Positions 1,676-12,725 of a stretch of 12,725 nt of DNA are shown piece after piece. Position 1 is the first letter of the stretch; every line of letters starts with the position of its first letter. Below the pieces are notes generated by a model. It saw only the letters and a program-made list of their open reading frames with translations, was not told where the DNA came from and made no database searches. Position numbers and translations under genes: made by a program. Origin of the DNA: a virus (Duplodnaviria; Heunggongvirae; Uroviricota; Caudoviricetes); IMG/VR virus record IMGVR_UViG_2859827302_000006. One strand, given 5' to 3'.

Positions 1676-1945
1676 TATGGGGATCCCCACCTACCGGAAT
1701 TTTTTTCCGGTTAAACGTTAATCAGGCTGGTGGGCTTTACCTGTTCGGTAGGTGTTATGATTATCGTAATACCTTTCCCCCAATGGGGTAAAAGCATCAA
1801 CCGTAACGAAAGTCGTTATGGTTGCCACCGATACCCCAAATTTGGGTATCACGAGTAAGCCCCAAAATCTGGGTGTTACTCTTACTACCCAAACTACGGG
1901 TAGTTTCCGTAGTTTCATGGTCGAGTTGCAGATCTGCAACTCCCC
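1676..1945. other. Hairpin-dense non-coding region (perfect palindromes and tandem CCCAAA...GGGT stem-loops); candidate structured RNA or protein-binding array
   Basis: Palindromes TGGGGATCCCCA (1678-1689), CCGGAA-T5-TTCCGG (1694-1710), GATACCC-caaattt-GGGTATC (1830-1850), AGTAAG...CTTACT enclosing CCCA/TGGG (1854-1886), TACCC-aaactac-GGGTA (1886-1902), and the perfect 20-bp GAGTTGCAGATCTGCAACTC (1923-1942). The three overlapping ORFs of 60-76 aa here have no ribosome-binding site and do not look coding. Confidence 0.35.
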
Positions 1946-2077
1946 CATTAACCACAGGCGAATTTCCGCCTTCGGTCATTCCTTAATCATCTGCGTAATC
2001 ATAATGATTATTCAGCAAGCGCAATTTTGCGCTTTGCTTTAAGTTCAGCGAGTTACCGCGCCGACTTCCTCAAATTG

Positions 2078-2470: not shown

Positions 2471-2535
2471 GGGTCCTTCCTGGAATTATGGCCCGTTACG
2501 GGGCGGCGACCTCGCGGTTTTTCGCTATTTATGAG
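2471..2535 (+). other. Lambda-type cos site (cos-1), cosN cohesive-end sequence GGGCGGCGACCT at 2501-2512, inverted relative to cos-2
   Basis: CCCGTTACGGGGCGGCGACCTCGCGGTTTTTCGCTATTTATGA matches the phage lambda cosN region and left-end leader with a one-base difference; the flank GGGTCCTTCCTGG resembles the lambda cosQ-side sequence. Confidence 0.75.
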
Positions 2536-2547
2536 CTTTTTTAGAGG

Positions 2548-2699
2548 GAGGTTGTTGTTTAATTGTTTGTCATATCCATTTGATAACTAAGTAAAAATAA
2601 AGAGCAATACAACAACCTGATAGTGTTTTTTTGATGCTAAAAATAAAAAAATGCTAATTGAATCAAATAGTTTTAAAAAAATACGTGGTTGTTGTATTG
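2548..2699. repeat. AT-rich region with three GGTTGTTGT elements (two direct, one inverted) on the cosB side of cos-1
   Basis: AGGTTGTTGTTT at 2549-2560; CAATACAACAACC at 2605-2617 is the exact reverse complement of GGTTGTTGTATTG at 2687-2699. Confidence 0.4.
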
Positions 2700-2729
2700 C
2701 GTATTTGATGGCGTAACAGAAAGTGATTT

Positions 2730-3170
2730 TTAACTTTGCTGTTCTGTAACGACTGATTGTTCCATGCTGGCACGGCGAACGCTTACGGCATGACGCCACC
2801 CAGCCAGAAAGCCAGCCATTTTATTTCGTGCCTTGCTCACATCTTCCGGTGAATAGCCGTAAATCTGCAAACCTTCATCAAATCGATGTTCTGTTTCTTC
2901 ACTGGAGTACTCGTCACGCTCAGATGAAAGCAGCCTGGCAAACATAATTTTTTCCAGCGCACTGGTTTCTACGTGATATCTGATGGCCTCAAGACGGCTT
3001 TTACCTGAAGACCAAAGCAATGTATGCCCGATGTGATAACCGCCAGACTTTCCGCGATCCGCATTAAGATACGGCATCCCCTGTTTGGTCCATGCGCGAA
3101 TAGTGGTTCTGTTAACCTTGAAATGTTCAGCTATTTCCTGCTGACTTACAAAACAAGCTTTATCAATCAT
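2730..3170 (-). CDS. Terminase small subunit homolog (lambda Nu1-like winged-HTH N-terminus); candidate packaging-redirection protein
   Basis: N-terminus QQEIAEHFKVNRTTIRAWTKQGMPYL parallels lambda Nu1 KKQLADIFGASIRTIQNWQEQGMPVL; ATG at 3170 with AAGGTA ribosome-binding site; cos-2 lies about 70 bp upstream, as in lambda cos-Nu1. At 146 aa it is shorter than Nu1 (181 aa). Confidence 0.85.
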   Translation of the reverse strand: MIDKACFVSQQEIAEHFKVNRTTIRAWTKQGMPYLNADRGKSGGYHIGHTLLWSSGKSRLEAIRYHVETSALEKIMFARLLSSERDEYSSEETEHRFDEGLQIYGYSPEDVSKARNKMAGFLAGWRHAVSVRRASMEQSVVTEQQS

Positions 3171-3240
3171 AATGTTACCTTAACCGCATGGTTAAATATT
3201 AATCAAGTGGTGGTGGTGTCACCTTCACGGAAAAACGTCA

Positions 3241-3300
3241 TAAATAGCGAAAACCCGCGAGGTCGCCGCCCCGTAACGGGTCCATATGCCGGAAAGGACC
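3241..3300 (-). other. Lambda-type cos site (cos-2) with cosQ-like flank, oriented toward the Nu1-like gene
   Basis: Minus-strand reading GGTCCTTTCCGG...CCCGTTACGGGGCGGCGACCTCGCGGGTTTTCGCTATTTATGA matches lambda cosQ/cosN/left-end sequence; cohesive-end 12-mer is the complement of 3260-3271. Confidence 0.8.
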
Positions 3301-3302
3301 CG

Positions 3303-3328
3303 TAAAAAAAGCCGGATTTCTCCGGCCT
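3303..3328 (-). terminator. Rho-independent terminator ending the capsid operon
   Basis: Minus-strand GCCGGA-GAAA-TCCGGC followed by T7, immediately after the stop of the 137-aa gene. Confidence 0.75.
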
Positions 3329-3332
3329 TGTC

Positions 3333-3746
3333 TCAGATGGTTTTCAGTATGCGCTCGATGTCGCCATCATCGCCCGGGTTTCTGCCGTCGTATGCCATGC
3401 CAGCTGAAACGGCTTGCGGGCTGTGCATGTCCATAAAGTTTTCAAAGGCTGCGGTAAGCTCCGGCGCAACCTTCTGGCGTTCCTGCTCTATGGTCATGCT
3501 AAGGATGCTTTTAGCCGTACCAACATCGATACAAGGCACGTTTGCCATTGCACGTAACAGCGGCTGATAGTCGTTATGCTCATGAAGCGCCATAATCGCA
3601 TCAGCGCGCGGCTTGTCCTGCTCTTCCAGTTTGTTGAGTTGATATACGGCCTCGTAGGTTGATAAACCTCTGTCAGCCATTGCCCGCGCTTCGGCTTTAA
3701 ATTTACTCGCCAGCGGTAGCGTCATGATGCTTTCATTCGTTGCCAT
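3333..3746 (-). CDS. Hypothetical protein (137 aa), last gene of the capsid operon
   Basis: ATG at 3746 with GGGGGA ribosome-binding site 4 nt upstream; 12 nt downstream of the D-like gene stop; protein-like composition; no recognisable motif. Confidence 0.65.
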   Translation of the reverse strand: MATNESIMTLPLASKFKAEARAMADRGLSTYEAVYQLNKLEEQDKPRADAIMALHEHNDYQPLLRAMANVPCIDVGTAKSILSMTIEQERQKVAPELTAAFENFMDMHSPQAVSAGMAYDGRNPGDDGDIERILKTI

Positions 3747-3758
3747 CGTTCCCCCTGC

Positions 3759-4094
3759 TTATCGGGCCAGCGGCTGAACGGATACGCCAGAACCCGCAAA
3801 GGCGGCGCATTTTTTCGCATCGGTGTCGACGCTCTCGGGCCAGTTCACGGCGGCGATATTAAAGATCCCCGTCTTGTAGCACTGTGCTGATTTCTGCTTT
3901 GACGTGTCCACGGGGTACGAAGTCAGATAAACAGCCTTTCCGGACGCCTGACCATCCCACGGCTTAAACTCGCCATTGTCCGCCAGCATCAGCGGGGTAA
4001 ATTCCTGAATGACGCCAGCATCAGCGGCAAAATGTACCAGCGTCGTGGATACCTGCTGACTGCCTGCAAATAACTCAATGTATGGAGTGTTCAT
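3759..4094 (-). CDS. Head decoration protein homolog (lambda gpD-like), 111 aa
   Basis: Size matches gpD (110 aa); C-terminal YKTGIFNIAAVNWPESVDTDAKKCAAFAGSGVSV parallels gpD [35 protein letters not shown]; ATG at 4094 with GGGGGA ribosome-binding site. Confidence 0.7.
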   Translation of the reverse strand: MNTPYIELFAGSQQVSTTLVHFAADAGVIQEFTPLMLADNGEFKPWDGQASGKAVYLTSYPVDTSKQKSAQCYKTGIFNIAAVNWPESVDTDAKKCAAFAGSGVSVQPLAR

Positions 4095-4105
4095 AGAATC
4101 CCCCG

Positions 4106-5161
4106 TTAACCAATTTTGACGGTAACAAATTTGCGAATGTCTGCCGGCACCGGCTGCGGTGCGCTGTGCGTCTGCACGTACTCAATCGCCGGATCGCCGT
4201 CCTCAATCCAGTTTTTCGGGTAGTACATGTTTTGCGTTGCGCCCGTTCTTACCGCTTCCTGATCCATAATCGCACCATAAGCAACCAGCCCTTTATTGTT
4301 GGTGTTGCCCAAGACCAGCAAATCAGGCTCAAGGAAATGTTTTTCGGTGCCGTCGCTGTCGGCGTATTTGCCGGAATAGACGATAAGGGCAATATCGCCC
4401 AGATAGCCTTTAAAGCTCACCACTTCGCCCAGGTTTTTACAGGCCAGTTCTGCGGCGGATTCTGAACCACGGGAAAGATCGTACAGTTCGCGGAATTTTT
4501 TAAAGCTGCGTAACGTGCGCCATACCTCAGCGCCCATAATCATGACGTTTGCGGGGCAATTGCCCTGATCCGCATAAAGCTCGATATCATAGATTGGATC
4601 GTGGGTTTCTTTGTCCTGCTCGGACCATTTACGGCCTTTGGCCTGCTCTATGATGTTGTTTTCCGGCATCTTCCAGTCGATTTCATAGCGTTCTATGCCT
4701 TCGCCCTCAATGATGTTTTTTCCGGTCGTTACCGCATTTACCGCCAGCCATTCAACACGCGCTTTAATAGCGTTTACCTGGCGGCGCATGTTGCCAGTAA
4801 TCAGGCGCATACGGCGATAGGTTGGGTCGTTAAGCTGTGCCGGATCTTCTCCAGCCATGCGCATGATGGTTTTTGTTGGATCGATTTCGTGCTTTGGCTT
4901 CATGTAGCCAGGTTTAATCGTGCTGGTTTCGTACCCTTTATCGCGCTGTACCTGGCTACCAACCATAGGCGAGCAAAACGCTGACATAGTGACTTCTTCG
5001 GTGTCCAGGTTATCCAGCATGATGTTTTGGGTGTTGAATGTCGCTACTTTCGGGAAAAACAGCGTGGTAAACAGCGGACTAAATTTAAATTCCGCAATAT
5101 CCCCGCGATTCAGGTACGCAAAAAGCTGGTGAGTGTTAAGTGCCGTTGCTTTGCCTGCCAT
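4106..5161 (-). CDS. Major capsid protein homolog (lambda gpE family), 351 aa
   Basis: Collinear motif matches to lambda gpE along the length: KPGYMKPKHEIDP, RRMRLITGNMRR, SFKGYLGDIALIVYSGKY, FLEPDLLVLGNTNNKGL, YPKNWIEDGDPA; ATG at 5161 with GGGGGTG ribosome-binding site. All + strand ORFs inside it are antisense. Confidence 0.9.
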   Translation of the reverse strand: MAGKATALNTHQLFAYLNRGDIAEFKFSPLFTTLFFPKVATFNTQNIMLDNLDTEEVTMSAFCSPMVGSQVQRDKGYETSTIKPGYMKPKHEIDPTKTIMRMAGEDPAQLNDPTYRRMRLITGNMRRQVNAIKARVEWLAVNAVTTGKNIIEGEGIERYEIDWKMPENNIIEQAKGRKWSEQDKETHDPIYDIELYADQGNCPANVMIMGAEVWRTLRSFKKFRELYDLSRGSESAAELACKNLGEVVSFKGYLGDIALIVYSGKYADSDGTEKHFLEPDLLVLGNTNNKGLVAYGAIMDQEAVRTGATQNMYYPKNWIEDGDPAIEYVQTHSAPQPVPADIRKFVTVKIG

Positions 5162-6205: not shown

Positions 6206-6483
6206 GATTCCACCTCTCCGGTTTTAACGTTGATGGTTGTTACCTGTTCCGCTTCGGCAATCTCCCGTTCTGTCAGCGTGGCAAAGTTTGCCGCCGCCGT
6301 GGTCATGAATGCGCTTATCAGGTCGGGATGTTCCTTCGCGTATCCTTCCCGCGTGTGGCGGTCTATCGTTCTGATTGCCACCTTTAAGGTGTGCTCAGTC
6401 ATGTCTAACGCTTTATATTTTGGCTCTGTTCTGTCTCTGCGTTTTTGGGTCATTTCTCGCAACCTCTCACTTTTTCGCCTCAC
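6202..6483 (-). CDS. Hypothetical small protein; true start probably the internal ATG at 6453 (about 83 aa)
   Basis: Stop overlaps the SSB start (ATGA); the ORF 5-prime end overlaps the iterons, and the in-frame ATG at 6453 has a GAGAGG ribosome-binding site. Confidence 0.5.
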   Translation of the reverse strand: MRRKSERLREMTQKRRDRTEPKYKALDMTEHTLKVAIRTIDRHTREGYAKEHPDLISAFMTTAAANFATLTEREIAEAEQVTTINVKTGEVES

Positions 6484-6657
6484 TTTTTCAAGCGTCTCAC
6501 TTCGTCGCAGTTGGGATTTTCGGTTTTTCTATGTGTGTGTTTCATAAGTATTTTTTTACCCCTCACTTTTGAGGATGTATACAGGTCGAAAAGTGAGGGA
6601 GAGCGGGCTAATTTTGGCCCTCTTTCTATCCCCCTCGCTTTTGCTCCTCACTTTTAT
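6463..6657. repeat. Iteron array, putative replication origin: seven copies of CTCACTTTT (two variants, one inverted) around an AT-rich spacer
   Basis: Copies at 6465-6475, 6478-6488, 6495-6504 (variant), 6561-6570, 6589-6599 (inverted), 6634-6642 (variant) and 6646-6655; AT-rich stretch 6510-6560; lies directly 3-prime of the Rep ATPase gene. Confidence 0.6.
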
Positions 6658-8054
6658 AGCGGCGCTACATCATCCCCATCGATACGAATAACCCCATCTT
6701 TTTCCAGCTTGTACAGCCAGCGCCGGAAGTTTTTCATTTCATACCCCAGCTTTTTCATGTCATCACGTAACAGCGGGATCGTGCACTTGTCGCCGTTCTG
6801 TGTGCGTGAACGGATGCACCCCCATAGCGCGGTATGGTTTTCCGTCTTGTTCCCTGCCTCCTCGATGCGCTCCAGTTCAACAGGAGGGCGCGGATCATCC
6901 ACCACCACCAGCGACGTGATTAATTCACCGTCAGCGTCGGTAAAAAGCTCCACCACGCGTAAGTCATATGCGGCTTCTTTGAGTTCCTCCGCGTCCTTCA
7001 TTTTGGTGCATGAGATAACCAGCGCTTCGCTTCCTGCGTCCTCCCTGCGTATCCGGTATTCAGCATCCAGCGAAGCACGAAATGCACTGGAACCGCGCGC
7101 GCCTTTCGTCTCATCCTTGCCGGAATGGTGAACCACCAGCACCGTGGCCCCTGTGCGTCGTTTCAGTTCGTCACAACCACGGATAAACGCCCCCATATCA
7201 CGGGAATCATTTTCATCATTCCCACCAAAGCAACGCGCCAGCGTATCCAGAATAATCATGCGTACAGGTTTACCCGTTTCCCGCTCCACCTGACGGGCAG
7301 CGATAACCATTTCATCAACATCAAGCGGGGCAGCCGGAAAGATGGGGCGGTTTACCAGATACAGATTTTTCACCTGCTCATCGTGCACAACCTCCCAGGC
7401 TTTTACACGACGCGGAACACCTATACCGCCTTCACCAACCACATAGAGAACCGCACCATGTGCAACCCTGCGGCCTCCCCACTGGCGACCAGTGGCAACA
7501 TGGCACGCCCACGATCCGGCAAGGAATGATTTATAGGACCCGCTAGCTCCGTATATGCTGCATAGCGATACCGCCGGAATAATCCCCTTAACCACGTAAT
7601 CCAGTTGCGTGTCGTATCCGGTAGATCCAACGCTCATCGGTAGCGTGGTTTTTCGCTGGTGGTTTTTTTCTTCCGCCGGCTCTTTCCCGCGCACCCGTTC
7701 CAGGTATTCGCGCCAGTTCTCCCGCATATGGCTGTGCATCCCTTCGGGGTAATAATTCGCATCAGTTACACCCGCCGCCGCCAGCTTGTGCGCAATGGCA
7801 TTAATATTTGATGGCCTGATGTGGCCTGCCTTGTACAGCCGGACACAATAGCGCCCCTCGTCGATGATTCTCAGGTCTGCCAGTTCATCCAGTTGATCAT
7901 CAGCCAGCACAACGGGAGGCACATTATCGCCAGCCAGTCGCCCGTCCTGTTCCTGCCACTGTTTCGCATGTGCCCAGGCATCACTACCCGCAAAAATAAT
8001 GACTTCGGTCATCTTGTCGTAAGGCTGTTTTTTTAAGTTCGGTGCGCTTTTCAT
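6654..8054 (-). CDS. RepA-like RecA-fold (AAA_25-type) replication ATPase, putative initiator-helicase (466 aa)
   Basis: Walker A GASGSYKS, Walker B-like MIILDTLARCFGG, motif VLVVHHSGKD and a basic C-terminal region; ATG at 8054 with AGGGG ribosome-binding site and ATGA overlap with the upstream gene. The N-terminal 150 aa have no recognisable primase motifs. Confidence 0.85.
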   Translation of the reverse strand: MKSAPNLKKQPYDKMTEVIIFAGSDAWAHAKQWQEQDGRLAGDNVPPVVLADDQLDELADLRIIDEGRYCVRLYKAGHIRPSNINAIAHKLAAAGVTDANYYPEGMHSHMRENWREYLERVRGKEPAEEKNHQRKTTLPMSVGSTGYDTQLDYVVKGIIPAVSLCSIYGASGSYKSFLAGSWACHVATGRQWGGRRVAHGAVLYVVGEGGIGVPRRVKAWEVVHDEQVKNLYLVNRPIFPAAPLDVDEMVIAARQVERETGKPVRMIILDTLARCFGGNDENDSRDMGAFIRGCDELKRRTGATVLVVHHSGKDETKGARGSSAFRASLDAEYRIRREDAGSEALVISCTKMKDAEELKEAAYDLRVVELFTDADGELITSLVVVDDPRPPVELERIEEAGNKTENHTALWGCIRSRTQNGDKCTIPLLRDDMKKLGYEMKNFRRWLYKLEKDGVIRIDGDDVAPL

Positions 8055-9386: not shown

Positions 9387-9606
9387 GTACCCCTCCGCAT
9401 TTTTTTTCGTTAGAAATAAGCGTTCTTCTTTCCTGTTCATCGCTCAGGAATACGCAGACCTCACCGCTAAGGCGTTTAAGTAAGCCGATGATTGCCCCTG
9501 ATTCGCTGTCGGTCATCATGCTAGGGTAATCCTCTGCCAGTGCGCAAATAACTTCGATTTGGTGGGCGCGTTCTGCTGCCTGTTGTAGTGTGATTTCCTG
9601 GCTCAT
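9376..9606 (-). CDS. Hypothetical small protein (76 aa)
   Basis: ATG at 9606 overlaps the preceding stop (ATGA); GGGGG upstream. Confidence 0.5.
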   Translation of the reverse strand: MSQEITLQQAAERAHQIEVICALAEDYPSMMTDSESGAIIGLLKRLSGEVCVFLSDEQERRTLISNEKKCGGVHVQ

Positions 9607-9803
9607 AAGCCTACCCCCTGACGAATACGGGCAGCAAATACCATCACGCAGCCAGCCGGAGATTGCTGGCGTGCTTCCTGTTCGCTGGTGGCCTCAATGG
9701 TAATCACGCGCGGTTGTGCCGTGCTCAGGGCGATAAAACGCCAGATGTATTTATTCAGGTTGTGCGAGTCCCGCCCTTTCGGGTGTGTGGTATGATTTCT
9801 CAT
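9603..9803 (-). CDS. Hypothetical small protein (66 aa), first gene of the main leftward operon; it is the C-terminal part of the 428-codon stop-free frame
   Basis: In-frame ATG at 9803 with GAGG ribosome-binding site, about 90 nt downstream of the predicted minus-strand promoter. Confidence 0.4.
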   Translation of the reverse strand: MRNHTTHPKGRDSHNLNKYIWRFIALSTAQPRVITIEATSEQEARQQSPAGCVMVFAARIRQGVGL

Positions 9804-9900
9804 AGCTACCTCGATACTGTTGCTATCGTTGGTGGTTAGAAGCCCCGTTACTGCTCCTACAGTGCGGGGTTTCGTCGTTTCTGTGCCTTTCATCAATAAG

Positions 9901-9981
9901 GTGTAAGACACAATGTAAAACAATGGTGTCTTACACGTCAACCCTTCAAAATATTTTTTTTTCGTGTATATTGTCTTACAC
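9901..9981. promoter_or_regulatory. Divergent promoter/operator switch between the RHH gene (+) and the main operon (-)
   Basis: Inverted repeat GTGTAAGACAC (9901-9911) / GTGTCTTACAC (9926-9936) plus half-site GTCTTACAC (9973-9981); + promoter TTCAAA (9945-9950)-16 nt-TATATT (9967-9972); minus promoter TTGACG (complement of 9936-9941)-17 nt-TTACAT (complement of 9913-9918). Confidence 0.55.
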
Positions 9982-10002
9982 CAAAAACATGAGGGGTTAA
10001 AC

Positions 10003-10182
10003 ATGGCAACGGGTCCAAAGAATGCAAAATCACAATCTGTAACTGCACGTATTGCCCATGAAATTATTGAAGGCATGGAGAACGTGAAAGAAGAAGGCGA
10101 AAGCACGGGACAGTTTATAAACGCAGCCATGCGCGGCGAAATCAAACGCCGCCAGCGCCGCAAGGCCAAAGAGCAGGAGTAA
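10003..10182 (+). CDS. Ribbon-helix-helix (CopG/Arc/MetJ-like) DNA-binding protein, about 59 aa; candidate repressor of the switch
   Basis: ATG at 10003 with GAGGGG ribosome-binding site; the pattern SVTARIAHEIIEGMENVKEEGESTGQFINAAMRGEIKRR fits a beta-strand plus two helices; the ORF-track start at 9964 (GTG) lies inside the promoter. Confidence 0.7.
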   Translation: MATGPKNAKSQSVTARIAHEIIEGMENVKEEGESTGQFINAAMRGEIKRRQRRKAKEQE

Positions 10183-10224
10183 CCATCACCAGCGCCGTGG
10201 TGTGAGTAACTACGGCGCATTGCT

Positions 10225-10413
10225 ATGCAGGACAACACAATGACCGATAAAGAATTGACCAAAACATTATCACCGGCACGGAAAAGACGGCGCAGAAAGA
10301 TAGAGCATGAATCAGAAAGATTCGCGCCATGTGCTTTTGCCCTTGAGCAATTCCTTAAAGAGTACAGGGAAAAGCGCTCATTGCAGGTATGGCAACGAAC
10401 TGAACCAGACTGA
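10225..10413 (+). CDS. Possible small Arg/Lys-rich protein co-transcribed with the RHH gene (likely start ATG 10240)
   Basis: Weak AGGA ribosome-binding site; basic stretch ARKRRRRK; followed by a + strand terminator. Could instead be untranslated. Confidence 0.35.
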   Translation: MQDNTMTDKELTKTLSPARKRRRRKIEHESERFAPCAFALEQFLKEYREKRSLQVWQRTEPD

Positions 10414-10490
10414 TTGCATTGCCCACCAGCCGCAAATGTGGCATTATTGGCAATGCTCATGCGTTGGGGATAACGTGTAGCTTGTGTCGA

Positions 10491-10520
10491 GGGGCCACCG
10501 TAGCGGGTGGCCTTTGTTTT
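10491..10520 (+). terminator. Rho-independent terminator of the RHH transcription unit
   Basis: GGCCACC-GTAGCG-GGTGGCC (10493-10512) followed by TTTGTTTT; a second weaker hairpin plus T-run lies at about 10613-10646. Confidence 0.6.
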
Positions 10521-10526
10521 GCCCGT

Positions 10527-10889
10527 TATTCGGCAATTGTGGCGCTTCTCCACATGGTTGATATAATCCCACTGCTCAGATTCATTTTTTGCGCAGTAGG
10601 TTAATTGTTCACAAAGGCGCTCCGGCAACGGGGCGCTTTTTGTTTTTATTAGTTTGTAGAAACCTGACTCAGAGATAATGCTCATATTCTGATTGCCGTC
10701 AGGGGTGTAAGTTAAATTTACTCCCTTTTTATCATCAAACATCTGCAACGCTCTGGCGTTAACAATATTGGTTTCACTCCCGCCAGTAAGGCCGGAAATA
10801 ACCGGAATAATTTCGGCAAAATTTTGCAGATTCTGTTTTTCAGGACGAACGAAGCCCCGCCCTTGTTCGGGAGAATATCCAGTATTCAT
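10527..10889 (-). pseudogene. Possible decayed gene with a Bro-N-like antirepressor N-terminus; the frame runs on without a stop to 9603
   Basis: The first 95 or so codons look protein-like and include ISESGFYKLIKTKSAPLPE, reminiscent of the Bro-N motif; downstream the frame is antisense to the RHH operon and rich in C/S/R; weak ribosome-binding site. Confidence 0.3.
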
Positions 10890-11495: not shown

Positions 11496-12725
11496 TTATA
11501 TTTCTCTGGCTATTGGCAATGTGGTTACGTTTTCATGTGTTCCCGCCAGTATCCCTAACCGCTCCGTCCACATATCCAGCGCGTCACGTTTCGCATCCAG
11601 ATAACGGGAATGGTTATAGACTCGTTGCATCCCTGGCATCTGATGACCTGTAAGCTGCTCCACGACGTGAGGATCCACGCCTAAATCGTTCAGCATCGTT
11701 GTAAAGGTGCGCCGGATGTCATGCAGTGACCAGTGAGGGTGTTTTAGCCTCCTGTGCGCTAATCTGCCGTACTGCGACACGCTTGTTTCCTGTTTCACTT
11801 CCCCCAGCAATAAGCCCGTGTGCCTGTTCTGCTCCACCAGCTGCGTGACGAACGGCAGTATTGCTTCCGGTATGGGCCGGAATATTGCCACCTTCGTTTT
11901 GCTGTGTTCTTTCGGCACGGTCCAGAGCATTTCGGTAAAATCCCACTCGCTGATCTCCGATAACCTCAGTTCTACCGTCCGGCATCCGAAAACAATCAGG
12001 AGGCGGATTAGTGCGACGTAGTAAGGGGAAAATATTTTTTTGTCCAGTGCCTGCAATAATTCGCCAAGTTCTTTGGTGCTTAAGACACGCTCGCTTATAT
12101 CCGGTTTTTTCCCAACGTCCGCCACACTCATATCATCAAGAACGTTGCTGATTGCATAGCGCCGCCTCCGGCAGAACTTAAGCGCCTGTTTGCACGTCTG
12201 TAGCAAGAATCCGGCAGTAACAGGCGTTCGCTTTGCCACCTGGTCAAAACAGGCCAGCCAGTGCCGTAGCTCGCATTTATCCAGCGGCATAGCACCAATG
12301 TGCTGTATTACGTGATTATTAAGGCGCTTTTTCAGGGCGGCATAATCCACGCGGTTTTCCTTTACGTAAGACTCAAGCCAGTAGGTAAGCGCATCGCCAA
12401 CCGTTACGGGCTTTAACGCTTTCTGTACGGTGTAATTCATCTCATGACGTGGATTTTTCCCCTCAGCAAGCCAAGCGCGACACTGTGCCGCTTTTTCCCT
12501 GGCAGCTTTCAGACTCAGATCAGGATAATTTCCCAGCTTAATCCGTTCCGGTCGTGCTCCCCTTCCCGTTCCGGCCCTGTAGGTGAAATACCAGGTTAAA
12601 AGGCCGCTGGTTGAATGCCTGACGCTCAGGTTTCCACCGTCATTAAGAAAGGCTGTTTTTTGGGCGGGTGTGCCGTTGATTTTCCTTAGCTGTGTATCAC
12701 TCAGTTTGTTAAGTGCTCTGCGCAT
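11496..12725 (-). CDS. int: Tyrosine site-specific integrase, P4-type (409 aa); start codon at the window edge
   Basis: N-terminal arm-binding region with the LNDGGNLSV motif (compare P4 Int LADGGGLYL); C-terminal catalytic signature with R in GCRTVELR, HxxR in LHDIRRTF and the Tyr region GHQMPGMQRVYNHSRYL. Confidence 0.92.
   Translation of the reverse strand: MRRALNKLSDTQLRKINGTPAQKTAFLNDGGNLSVRHSTSGLLTWYFTYRAGTGRGARPERIKLGNYPDLSLKAAREKAAQCRAWLAEGKNPRHEMNYTVQKALKPVTVGDALTYWLESYVKENRVDYAALKKRLNNHVIQHIGAMPLDKCELRHWLACFDQVAKRTPVTAGFLLQTCKQALKFCRRRRYAISNVLDDMSVADVGKKPDISERVLSTKELGELLQALDKKIFSPYYVALIRLLIVFGCRTVELRLSEISEWDFTEMLWTVPKEHSKTKVAIFRPIPEAILPFVTQLVEQNRHTGLLLGEVKQETSVSQYGRLAHRRLKHPHWSLHDIRRTFTTMLNDLGVDPHVVEQLTGHQMPGMQRVYNHSRYLDAKRDALDMWTERLGILAGTHENVTTLPIAREI

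Follow-up and report, generated by a model that had tools for sequence, protein, structure and literature searches.

The DNA considered here is a 12,725-nucleotide stretch of a virus record assigned to the Caudoviricetes (IMG/VR IMGVR_UViG_2859827302_000006), hereafter the window, and our subject is the pair of lambda-type cohesive-end (cos) sites that face one another across a single gene near one end of this stretch. By blastn, the window is collinear with positions 1377930-1389000 of CFT073 (NC_004431) at 94-97% identity, with phoQ at the border; PhoQ itself is encoded at 1-1461 by the DNA flanking the island. The remainder of the window constitutes an island of about 10 kb with genes for a tyrosine integrase (11496-12725, assigned by a Pfam and PHROGs scan of the window open reading frames), a replication module that includes an AAA_25 protein, an SSB, a lambda E-like capsid protein and a D-like decoration protein. 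The CFT073 DNA lying between roxA and phoQ is EcCICFT073, a model Gram-negative phage-inducible chromosomal island (PICI) (Fillol-Salom et al. 2018 ISME J, PMC6092414). Judged by its integrase, AAA_25 replication protein, SSB, phoQ flank and collinearity with EcCICFT073, the window is a PICI of the EcCICFT073 family residing at the same phoQ-adjacent site, and closed Escherichia coli chromosomes carry the same region at about 98.7% identity.

Exact copies of the cosN 12-mer GGGCGGCGACCT occur twice in the window, at 2501-2512 on the plus strand and at 3260-3271 on the minus strand, with 747 bp between them. With up to one mismatch allowed, only 0.06 matches would be expected by chance, and two matches were obtained in 0 of 200 shuffles. 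Each copy lies within one arm of an inverted repeat whose arms, at 2470-2541 and 3231-3302, are 72 nt long, 86% complementary and 689 nt apart. The first arm forms the core of the (+) site, the equivalent of the published cos2, and comprises a cosQ-like CGGGTCCTTCC at 2470-2480, cosN at 2501-2512 and an I2-like leader extending to about 2535; the second forms the core of the (-) site, the equivalent of the published cos1, with its cosQ-like CGGGTCCTTTCC at 3291-3302. Over positions -45 to +36 relative to cosN, the 2501 (+) site is 70% and the 3271 (-) site 79% identical to lambda, and both have the cosQ-like motif CGGGTCCTT(T)CC about 30 bp upstream of cosN as well as the I2/leader segment CGCTATTTATGA / CGCGGnTTTTCGCTATTTATGA, as in lambda. 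The two sites are convergent, such that their cosB sides point inward over the gene at 2730-3170 (-). Both possess the cosN, cosQ-like and I2/leader elements of a lambda-type cos, and cleavage is predicted at each.

A first-pass annotation of this DNA had described two near-identical, inverted and convergent lambda-type cos copies, one canonically placed ahead of a Nu1-like gene, the second accompanied by its own set of repeats. The 12-mer matches, the inverted repeat and the lambda alignment bear this description out, and its coordinates were correct to within a few bases, the 740 bp then quoted being the 747 bp between the 12-mers. That annotation had also foreseen that one copy might have arisen as an artefact of assembly or through a recent duplication private to this DNA, an explanation to which we assign a negligible probability and which comparison refutes. 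To place the arrangement among its relatives, we collected 80 related loci with a 137-aa gene upstream of the packaging cassette as anchor, 63 of which have a complete interval; the same layout is found in closed chromosomes, that of CFT073 included, and in dozens of independent contigs, and a convergent cos pair is present in 50 of the 63 complete islands (79%).

The gene between the two sites (2730-3170, -) encodes a protein of 146 aa that is 98.6% identical over 144 aa to RppA (redirecting phage packaging protein) of CFT073 and matches RppC, as crystallised in PDB 6hlk, with an E-value of 5.7e-31. Because Pfam gave only sub-threshold helix-turn-helix matches to this product, its identification required the PDB and PHROGs searches. 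An identity as a terminase small subunit (Nu1/TerS), which the first-pass annotation had proposed, was considered and rejected. The TerS family phrog_57 is matched at residues 7-47 only, corresponding to the winged-helix DNA-binding domain, whereas phage and island TerS proteins match it over 1-172; a full-length small subunit would have a C-terminal region for oligomerisation and binding of the large subunit (TerL). With Nu1 the protein shares 30% identity across 64 aa. On these comparisons the gene between the cos sites is rpp and not a small terminase gene.

Directly upstream of rpp, the 3171-3259 (-) segment is the island-specific cosB of the 3271 (-) site and corresponds to the cosB of the published cos1. 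The 3271 site is 99% identical to cos1 of CFT073 over +37 to +230, cosB included, and its cosB is devoid of phage R boxes. As in the published cos1, it carries a single proposed binding segment, ACCACCACC at +55 to +63 (window 3209-3217), which is the segment proposed as R3-PICI for the rpp-linked cos (PMC9026076). Two further features of this site may concern the expression of rpp. Immediately upstream of cosQ, at the end of the 137-aa gene, lies a hairpin followed by a T-run (GGCCGGAGAAATCCGGC TTTTTTT; 3303-3330, -), which was read from the sequence and is conserved in related islands. A terminator scan did not report this hairpin and flagged cosN itself as a weak stem; the scan was given no weight. 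Two promoter-like sites also lie inside the Rpp-type cosB (3166-3222, -), and in view of these sites and the upstream hairpin with its run of seven T residues, transcription of rpp may start inside its own cos site.

The 2501 (+) site is followed by a phage-type cosB cassette (2535-2733, +) with three boxes in +/-/+ orientation, namely GGTTGTTGT at 2550-2558 (+50), ACAACAACC at 2609-2617 (+109) and GGTTGTTGT again at 2687-2695 (+187), and the repeat elements of the first-pass annotation are thus real. This 199-bp segment between the (+) core and the rpp stop codon appears as a gap in the blastn comparison with CFT073, and its ungapped identity to the cosB of CFT073 cos2 is 24%, the level of random sequence. 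Against the cosB of a prophage of E. coli O111:H- 11128 (NC_013364, ~2559000), the identity rises to 66% ungapped and about 76% by blastn; the matching DNA is intergenic and lies immediately upstream of the genes for TerS, TerL, head-tail joining protein, portal and protease. A similar version of this cosB is found in about 240 other E. coli genomes. When the whole of 2465-2735 was compared by blastn with phage GenBank, matches were confined to the cosQ-cosN core and no record covered the cosB part; the match to a native phage cosB came solely from E. coli chromosomal prophages and from a pattern scan of viral contigs. The pattern consisted of cosN, then GGTTGTTGT, then ACAACAACC, with the third box (R1) outside the pattern, and it yielded 76 matches: in 57 a 168-aa terS starts at +218 to +230 and is followed by terL, and 18 are islands with an antisense rpp or an rpp remnant. 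When 48 distinct copies from phages and islands are aligned, they are collinear from cosQ through all three boxes, and the third box is near-invariant among them while the spacers diverge to about 70%.

Comparison with the annotated cos sites of lambda and phage 21 further defines this cassette. The cosN sequence is identical in all three, the cosQ-like and I2-like flanks are kept, and boxes one and two, at +50 and +109, fall where R3 and R2 are annotated in lambda (49-64 and 108-123) and in phage 21 (50-65 and 107-122), so that R3, R2 and R1-like repeats are present in the window in the order and, for the first two, at the spacing known from these phages. The differences lie in the boxes themselves, which read CGTTTCCxTTCT in lambda, CATGTCGG in phage 21 and GGTTGTTGT in the window; in the position of the third box, which at +187 sits about 37 bp beyond R1 (150 in both lambda and phage 21); and in what follows, namely Nu1 or gene 1 in the phages and the 3' end of the antisense rpp in the window. 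With the lambdoid prophages that encode a 168-aa TerS, exemplified by that of O111:H- 11128, the likeness is closer, since cosB is collinear through the three boxes and some gene-less islands are near-identical to the phage cosB up to 7 bp past R1. In those phages cosB is followed by terS, terL and portal genes, whereas the window copy, about 76% identical, lacks terS. From this comparison we conclude that the 2501 site is a predicted complete phage-type cos (cosQ, cosN and cosB) of a lambdoid group other than that of lambda and phi80, and its cosB, as judged by the CFT073 and prophage alignments, is an exchanged cassette and not a diverged duplicate.

Both sites have counterparts in the published genetics of EcCICFT073, where cos1 and cos2 have been cloned, deleted and cosB-swapped (PMC6092414, PMC6739421), such that the arrangement, which the first-pass annotation took to be undescribed, is already known. 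The two published sequences, printed in Supplementary Figure S1A of PMC6739421, allow a direct assignment: cos1 corresponds to the window 3271 (-) site, and cos2 to the 2501 (+) site, with a core that is 94% identical over -45 to +36. EcCICFT073 belongs to the same family, occupies the same phoQ-adjacent site and has its 144-aa rppA gene enclosed by a pair of cosN copies that are likewise inverted, its second cos sharing with the window 2501 site the core, the position after rpp and the inverted orientation. It differs in the cosB of cos2, which has CCGGACAT boxes where the 199-bp cassette of the window has GGTTGTTGT boxes, in the last rpp codons at the cassette junction and in its replication module.

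Each of the two EcCICFT073 sites, when cloned in a plasmid, supports transduction by lambda and phi80; deletion of cos1 lowers island transfer, deletion of cos2 raises it and deletion of both abolishes it (Fillol-Salom et al. 2018 ISME J, PMC6092414). RppA stimulates cos1, which is needed with lambda and phi80 (PMC6092414, PMC6739421). RppA binds the helper TerS, the resulting RppA-TerS complex passes over phage cosB in favour of that of cos1, and a swap of cosB between cos1 and cos2 carries Rpp dependence along; TerS binding and redirected packaging are shown for RppA and RppC (2019 Mol Cell, PMC6739421). Rpp is further described as acting on TerS of the lambda, phi80 and phage 21 types (PMC9026076).

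These data bear on one suggestion of the first-pass annotation, that the second site is a decoy directed against helper packaging. On a multicopy replicating island, such a decoy would titrate or misdirect the native helper terminase and thereby add to phage interference. The 2501 site does carry a native-type cosB that a helper TerS should bind, and convergent cuts would break concatemers. Yet interference has been mapped to Rpp alone (PMC6739421), and a plasmid with cloned cos2 is itself transduced and so is a productive substrate, which in effect makes the site an alternative cos and not purely a decoy. We consider the decoy explanation improbable. Of the first-pass interpretation as a whole, then, the two cos sites, their orientation and the separate repeat set stand, and the small terminase gene, the novelty of the arrangement and the decoy fall away; two of its other ideas, an alternative cos for a second type of helper and a footprint of module exchange at cos, gain support from the comparative data that follow.

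Among the related islands, four architectures can be distinguished. That of the window combines an Rpp-type cosB and rpp with an inverted cos bearing GGTTGTTGT boxes (cosN spacing 759 bp), and that of CFT073 an Rpp-type cosB and rppA with an inverted cos bearing CCGGACAT boxes (739 bp). A third combines an island-specific cosB and a full 180-aa island TerS with an inverted cos bearing either GGATCTGA or phage-21-like boxes (867 bp), and the fourth is gene-less, its GGTTGTTGT cos and its CCGGACAT cos facing each other (524 bp). The second site thus carries one of four phage-type cosB kinds, with boxes GGTTGTTGT (GG), CCGGACAT (CC), GGATCTGA (GA) or 21-like. The first three are found in viral contigs mainly beside phage terS and terL; pattern matches for the CC kind number 92 in phages vs 7 in islands, and for the GA kind 27 vs 10. 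The fourth is 90% identical to annotated phage 21 through R3 and I1.

The box kinds are accompanied by corresponding differences in TerS. The TerS proteins of lambda, phage 21 and the GA group have a common Nu1-like N-domain (55-77% identical), and the N-domains of the GG and CC groups differ from this type; the CC and GA groups each have their own TerS N-terminal domain. As a side observation, the TerS proteins of the GG and CC phage groups (represented by L162 and L079) have near-identical C-terminal halves and unrelated N-terminal DNA-binding domains, the latter having been cleanly exchanged in step with the kind of cosB box. Many sister islands (within L088-L158; e.g. L094 4476-5353) encode the full-length 180-aa small terminase in place of rpp, and in these the island cosB has boxes GGTGGTGGTGG and ACACCAACC/GGTTGGTGT, the second cos being GA-type or phage-21-like.

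Across 39 distinct cassettes, the kind of second site is strictly complementary to the specificity protein of the island. In Rpp islands the second site is only GG (8) or CC (8); in own-TerS islands it is GA (9), 21-like (5) or unclassified (4), and crossed combinations are absent (16:0 and 0:14). Such a pattern would be expected if an island covers one class of helper by means of its protein and another by means of a native DNA site.

We weighed two accounts of how the second site came to be there and what it does. One holds that it is a functionless footprint, in which recombination of islands with helper phages at the conserved cosQ-cosN core repeatedly brings in phage cosB DNA, the site persisting solely on account of its slow loss. 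Several features are as this account would have them: the cassettes are mosaic, and their boundaries fall at cosN and at the stop codon of rpp; one island retains the first codons of a phage terS beside its captured cosB; the second site has been lost in some islands; and in EcCICFT073 deletion of cos2 improves transfer by lambda and phi80 (PMC6092414). Decay, however, accords poorly with retention of the pair in 79% of complete islands, with three R boxes that are intact though the spacers have diverged to about 70%, with four different cassettes that are each complete and with the strict complementarity between cassette type and specificity protein. It also accords poorly with the findings that cloned cos2 supports transduction and that transfer is abolished only by the double deletion (PMC6092414). 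On balance we regard a functionless footprint as unlikely, if the most credible of the rivals. A related observation comes from loci L103, L104, L109, L112 and L159 (e.g. L103 4412-4811), in which a mutated cosN GGGGCGGGAGCGGCG is followed by CC boxes and then by the first ~24 codons of the matching phage terS; these are the decayed remains of a captured phage cos-terS junction.

The other account, which we favour and consider reasonably probable, is that the window holds a packaging cassette of the EcCICFT073 family in which the cos1/Rpp system at 3271 is combined with a cos2 equivalent at 2501 whose exchanged cosB would serve as an Rpp-independent site for a second class of helper. Rpp would imitate the DNA-binding domain of TerS from a Nu1-type helper and join this TerS in an Rpp-TerS complex, as shown for the 99%-identical CFT073 sequences. 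This complex would drop the phage cosB and recognise the cosB of the 3271 site, after which the helper TerL would cut cosN and package the island; with a Nu1-type helper, packaging would thus proceed from the 3271 site toward decreasing window coordinates. For a helper whose TerS reads GGTTGTTGT boxes, the unmodified native terminase would instead start at the 2501 site without Rpp, run the opposite way round the concatemer and end at the next 2501 site of the same orientation.

The inverted arrangement would allow both sites to persist. In classical lambda cos-duplication genetics, termination needs cosQ and cosN in the direction of terminase travel, and because of this requirement an inverted site would be ignored by the translocating terminase, such that neither cos is lost. 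Were the two sites in direct orientation, terminase would be expected to delete the DNA between them, rpp included. Lambda phages with cos duplications likewise have two cos sites in one packaged replicon; those duplications, in work attributed to Emmons in 1974 and to Feiss and Campbell in 1974, are reportedly direct repeats that terminase resolves into deletions, in contrast to the window, whose inverted sites should prevent such loss. A cost would arise with any helper able to cut both sites, which fits the higher transfer reported once cos2 was deleted (PMC6092414).

Several points weigh against this two-helper account. In CFT073 the deletion of cos2 raised transfer by lambda and phi80, so that with those helpers the site is a cost (PMC6092414). 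A single cos is present in 8 of the 63 complete related islands, with part of cosN kept in L151, consistent with loss or truncation of the second site. The counts behind the complementarity are not phylogenetically independent, and the supposition that Rpp would not bind TerS of the GG and CC types is drawn purely from sequence divergence. Co-residence of island and presumed helper is not evident either: by IMG genome ids of the fetched loci, of seven isolate genomes carrying window-type islands, only one contained a phage contig of the GGTTGTTGT type as well, a comparison that is uninformative against a background of about 4-5% of E. coli genomes and was dropped.

We extend this proposal to the family as a whole more tentatively, and put it at a little below even odds. 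In its extended form, the convergent pair would be a modular two-helper cassette that joins an own-protein cos, operated by Rpp for Nu1-type helpers or by an island TerS, to a captured native cosB of the complementary TerS class, of which there are at least four interchangeable kinds; inversion would permit the two sites to coexist, and double cutting would drive inversions and cassette exchange. Cutting at both convergent sites would release an inner fragment with identical 5'-GGGCGGCGACCT overhangs that could rejoin in either orientation, and the outer ends could not join each other.

An inner fragment of this kind, with its two identical cohesive ends, fits the inversion isomers seen among the relatives. 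Gene-less islands occur in both orientations as exact inversion isomers, both isomers occur in several genomes and one gene-less form is seen in a closed chromosome. For example, the inner 600 nt of L147 and L129 are 98% identical as reverse complements while the flanks are collinear, and the exchange is confined to a 25-bp identical core, CCCGTTACG-GGGCGGCGACCT-CGCG, that contains cosN. Homologous recombination within this core explains the inversions as well as terminase cutting and rejoining does. The isomers might also be taken to mean that the inverted pair is chiefly an invertible switch, in which a flip changes the pairing of cosB with its flank or turns rpp on or off. Inversion, however, is to be expected as a side effect wherever a repeat is inverted or both cos sites are cut. 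Additionally, the flipped form is absent from the 34 distinct cassettes that bear rpp or terS (0 among the 16 with Rpp), which suggests selection against reversal of the gene, and no dedicated invertase lies beside the segment, the island integrase being the sole recombinase among the window open reading frames scanned against Pfam and PHROGs. We consider a switch slightly less probable even than a decoy.

The convergent cos1/Rpp/cos2 layout is thus already known for the model island, and the window adds a member with a different phage-derived second cosB. Neither the 2018 nor the 2019 paper takes up the origin or orientation of the cos2 cosB, and the question why some PICIs have two cos sites is raised there (PMC6092414, PMC6739421); the word "inverted" is absent from the main text of both, and "orientation" also from the text of PMC6092414. 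The review by Murialdo and Feiss (2022) treats the rpp-linked cos only (PMC9026076), and a literature search for subsequent studies of cos2 yielded nothing beyond the papers of 2018 and 2019. What appear to be undescribed in the searchable literature are the sequence-based proposals that the second-site cosB matches native phage cosB, is interchangeable and complements the specificity protein of the island, and this comparative result offers a testable answer to the question of the original authors. If correct, satellites would widen their helper range by coupling a protein-based hijack to a DNA-based mimic, and cosN would be a hotspot at which satellites and phages trade packaging specificity; this is relevant to any attempt to predict the prophages by which virulence-associated islands can be mobilised in pathogenic E. 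coli. Among other satellites, SaPIbov4 and SaPIbov5 are likewise packaged by way of cos and carry the cos of their helper, and two putative cos sites have been ascribed to SaPIbov4 as well (cited in PMC6092414); they differ in that their sequences are unrelated and their helpers are HNH-dependent cos phages.

Finally, other parts of the island also depart from EcCICFT073. The replication module differs from that of CFT073, with no blastn similarity across 6381-7908, and a 466-aa AAA_25 protein (6654-8054) stands in place of the 584-aa "DNA primase family protein" of CFT073. Between phoQ and a 93-aa gene (2155-2436), some 320 bp (1741-2060) have no blastn counterpart at that position in CFT073, and just short unassigned open reading frames, at 1718-1948 (-) and 1818-2042 (+), are present there. 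Next to the packaging cassette, the 137-aa protein (3333-3746, -) belongs to phrog_1999 and is weakly similar to the C-terminal, scaffold-like end of a head-maturation-protease family (E=5.5e-8); at higher window coordinates lie the genes for the D-like decoration protein (3759-4094, -) and the lambda E-like major capsid protein (4106-5161, -). The island has these capsid and decoration genes without portal, protease or terL genes; EcCICFT073 is said to be without capsid-morphogenesis genes and to be packaged in full-size heads (PMC6092414). An open reading frame of 428 aa (9603-10889, -) has a short Ant-like stretch near its N-terminus (residues ~49-84) and a C-terminus similar to the "transcriptional repressor" family phrog_6196 (E=8.8e-55); in CFT073 the 96.6%-identical DNA bears the annotation of several small genes, Icd-like and YlcI/YnfO-family genes among them.

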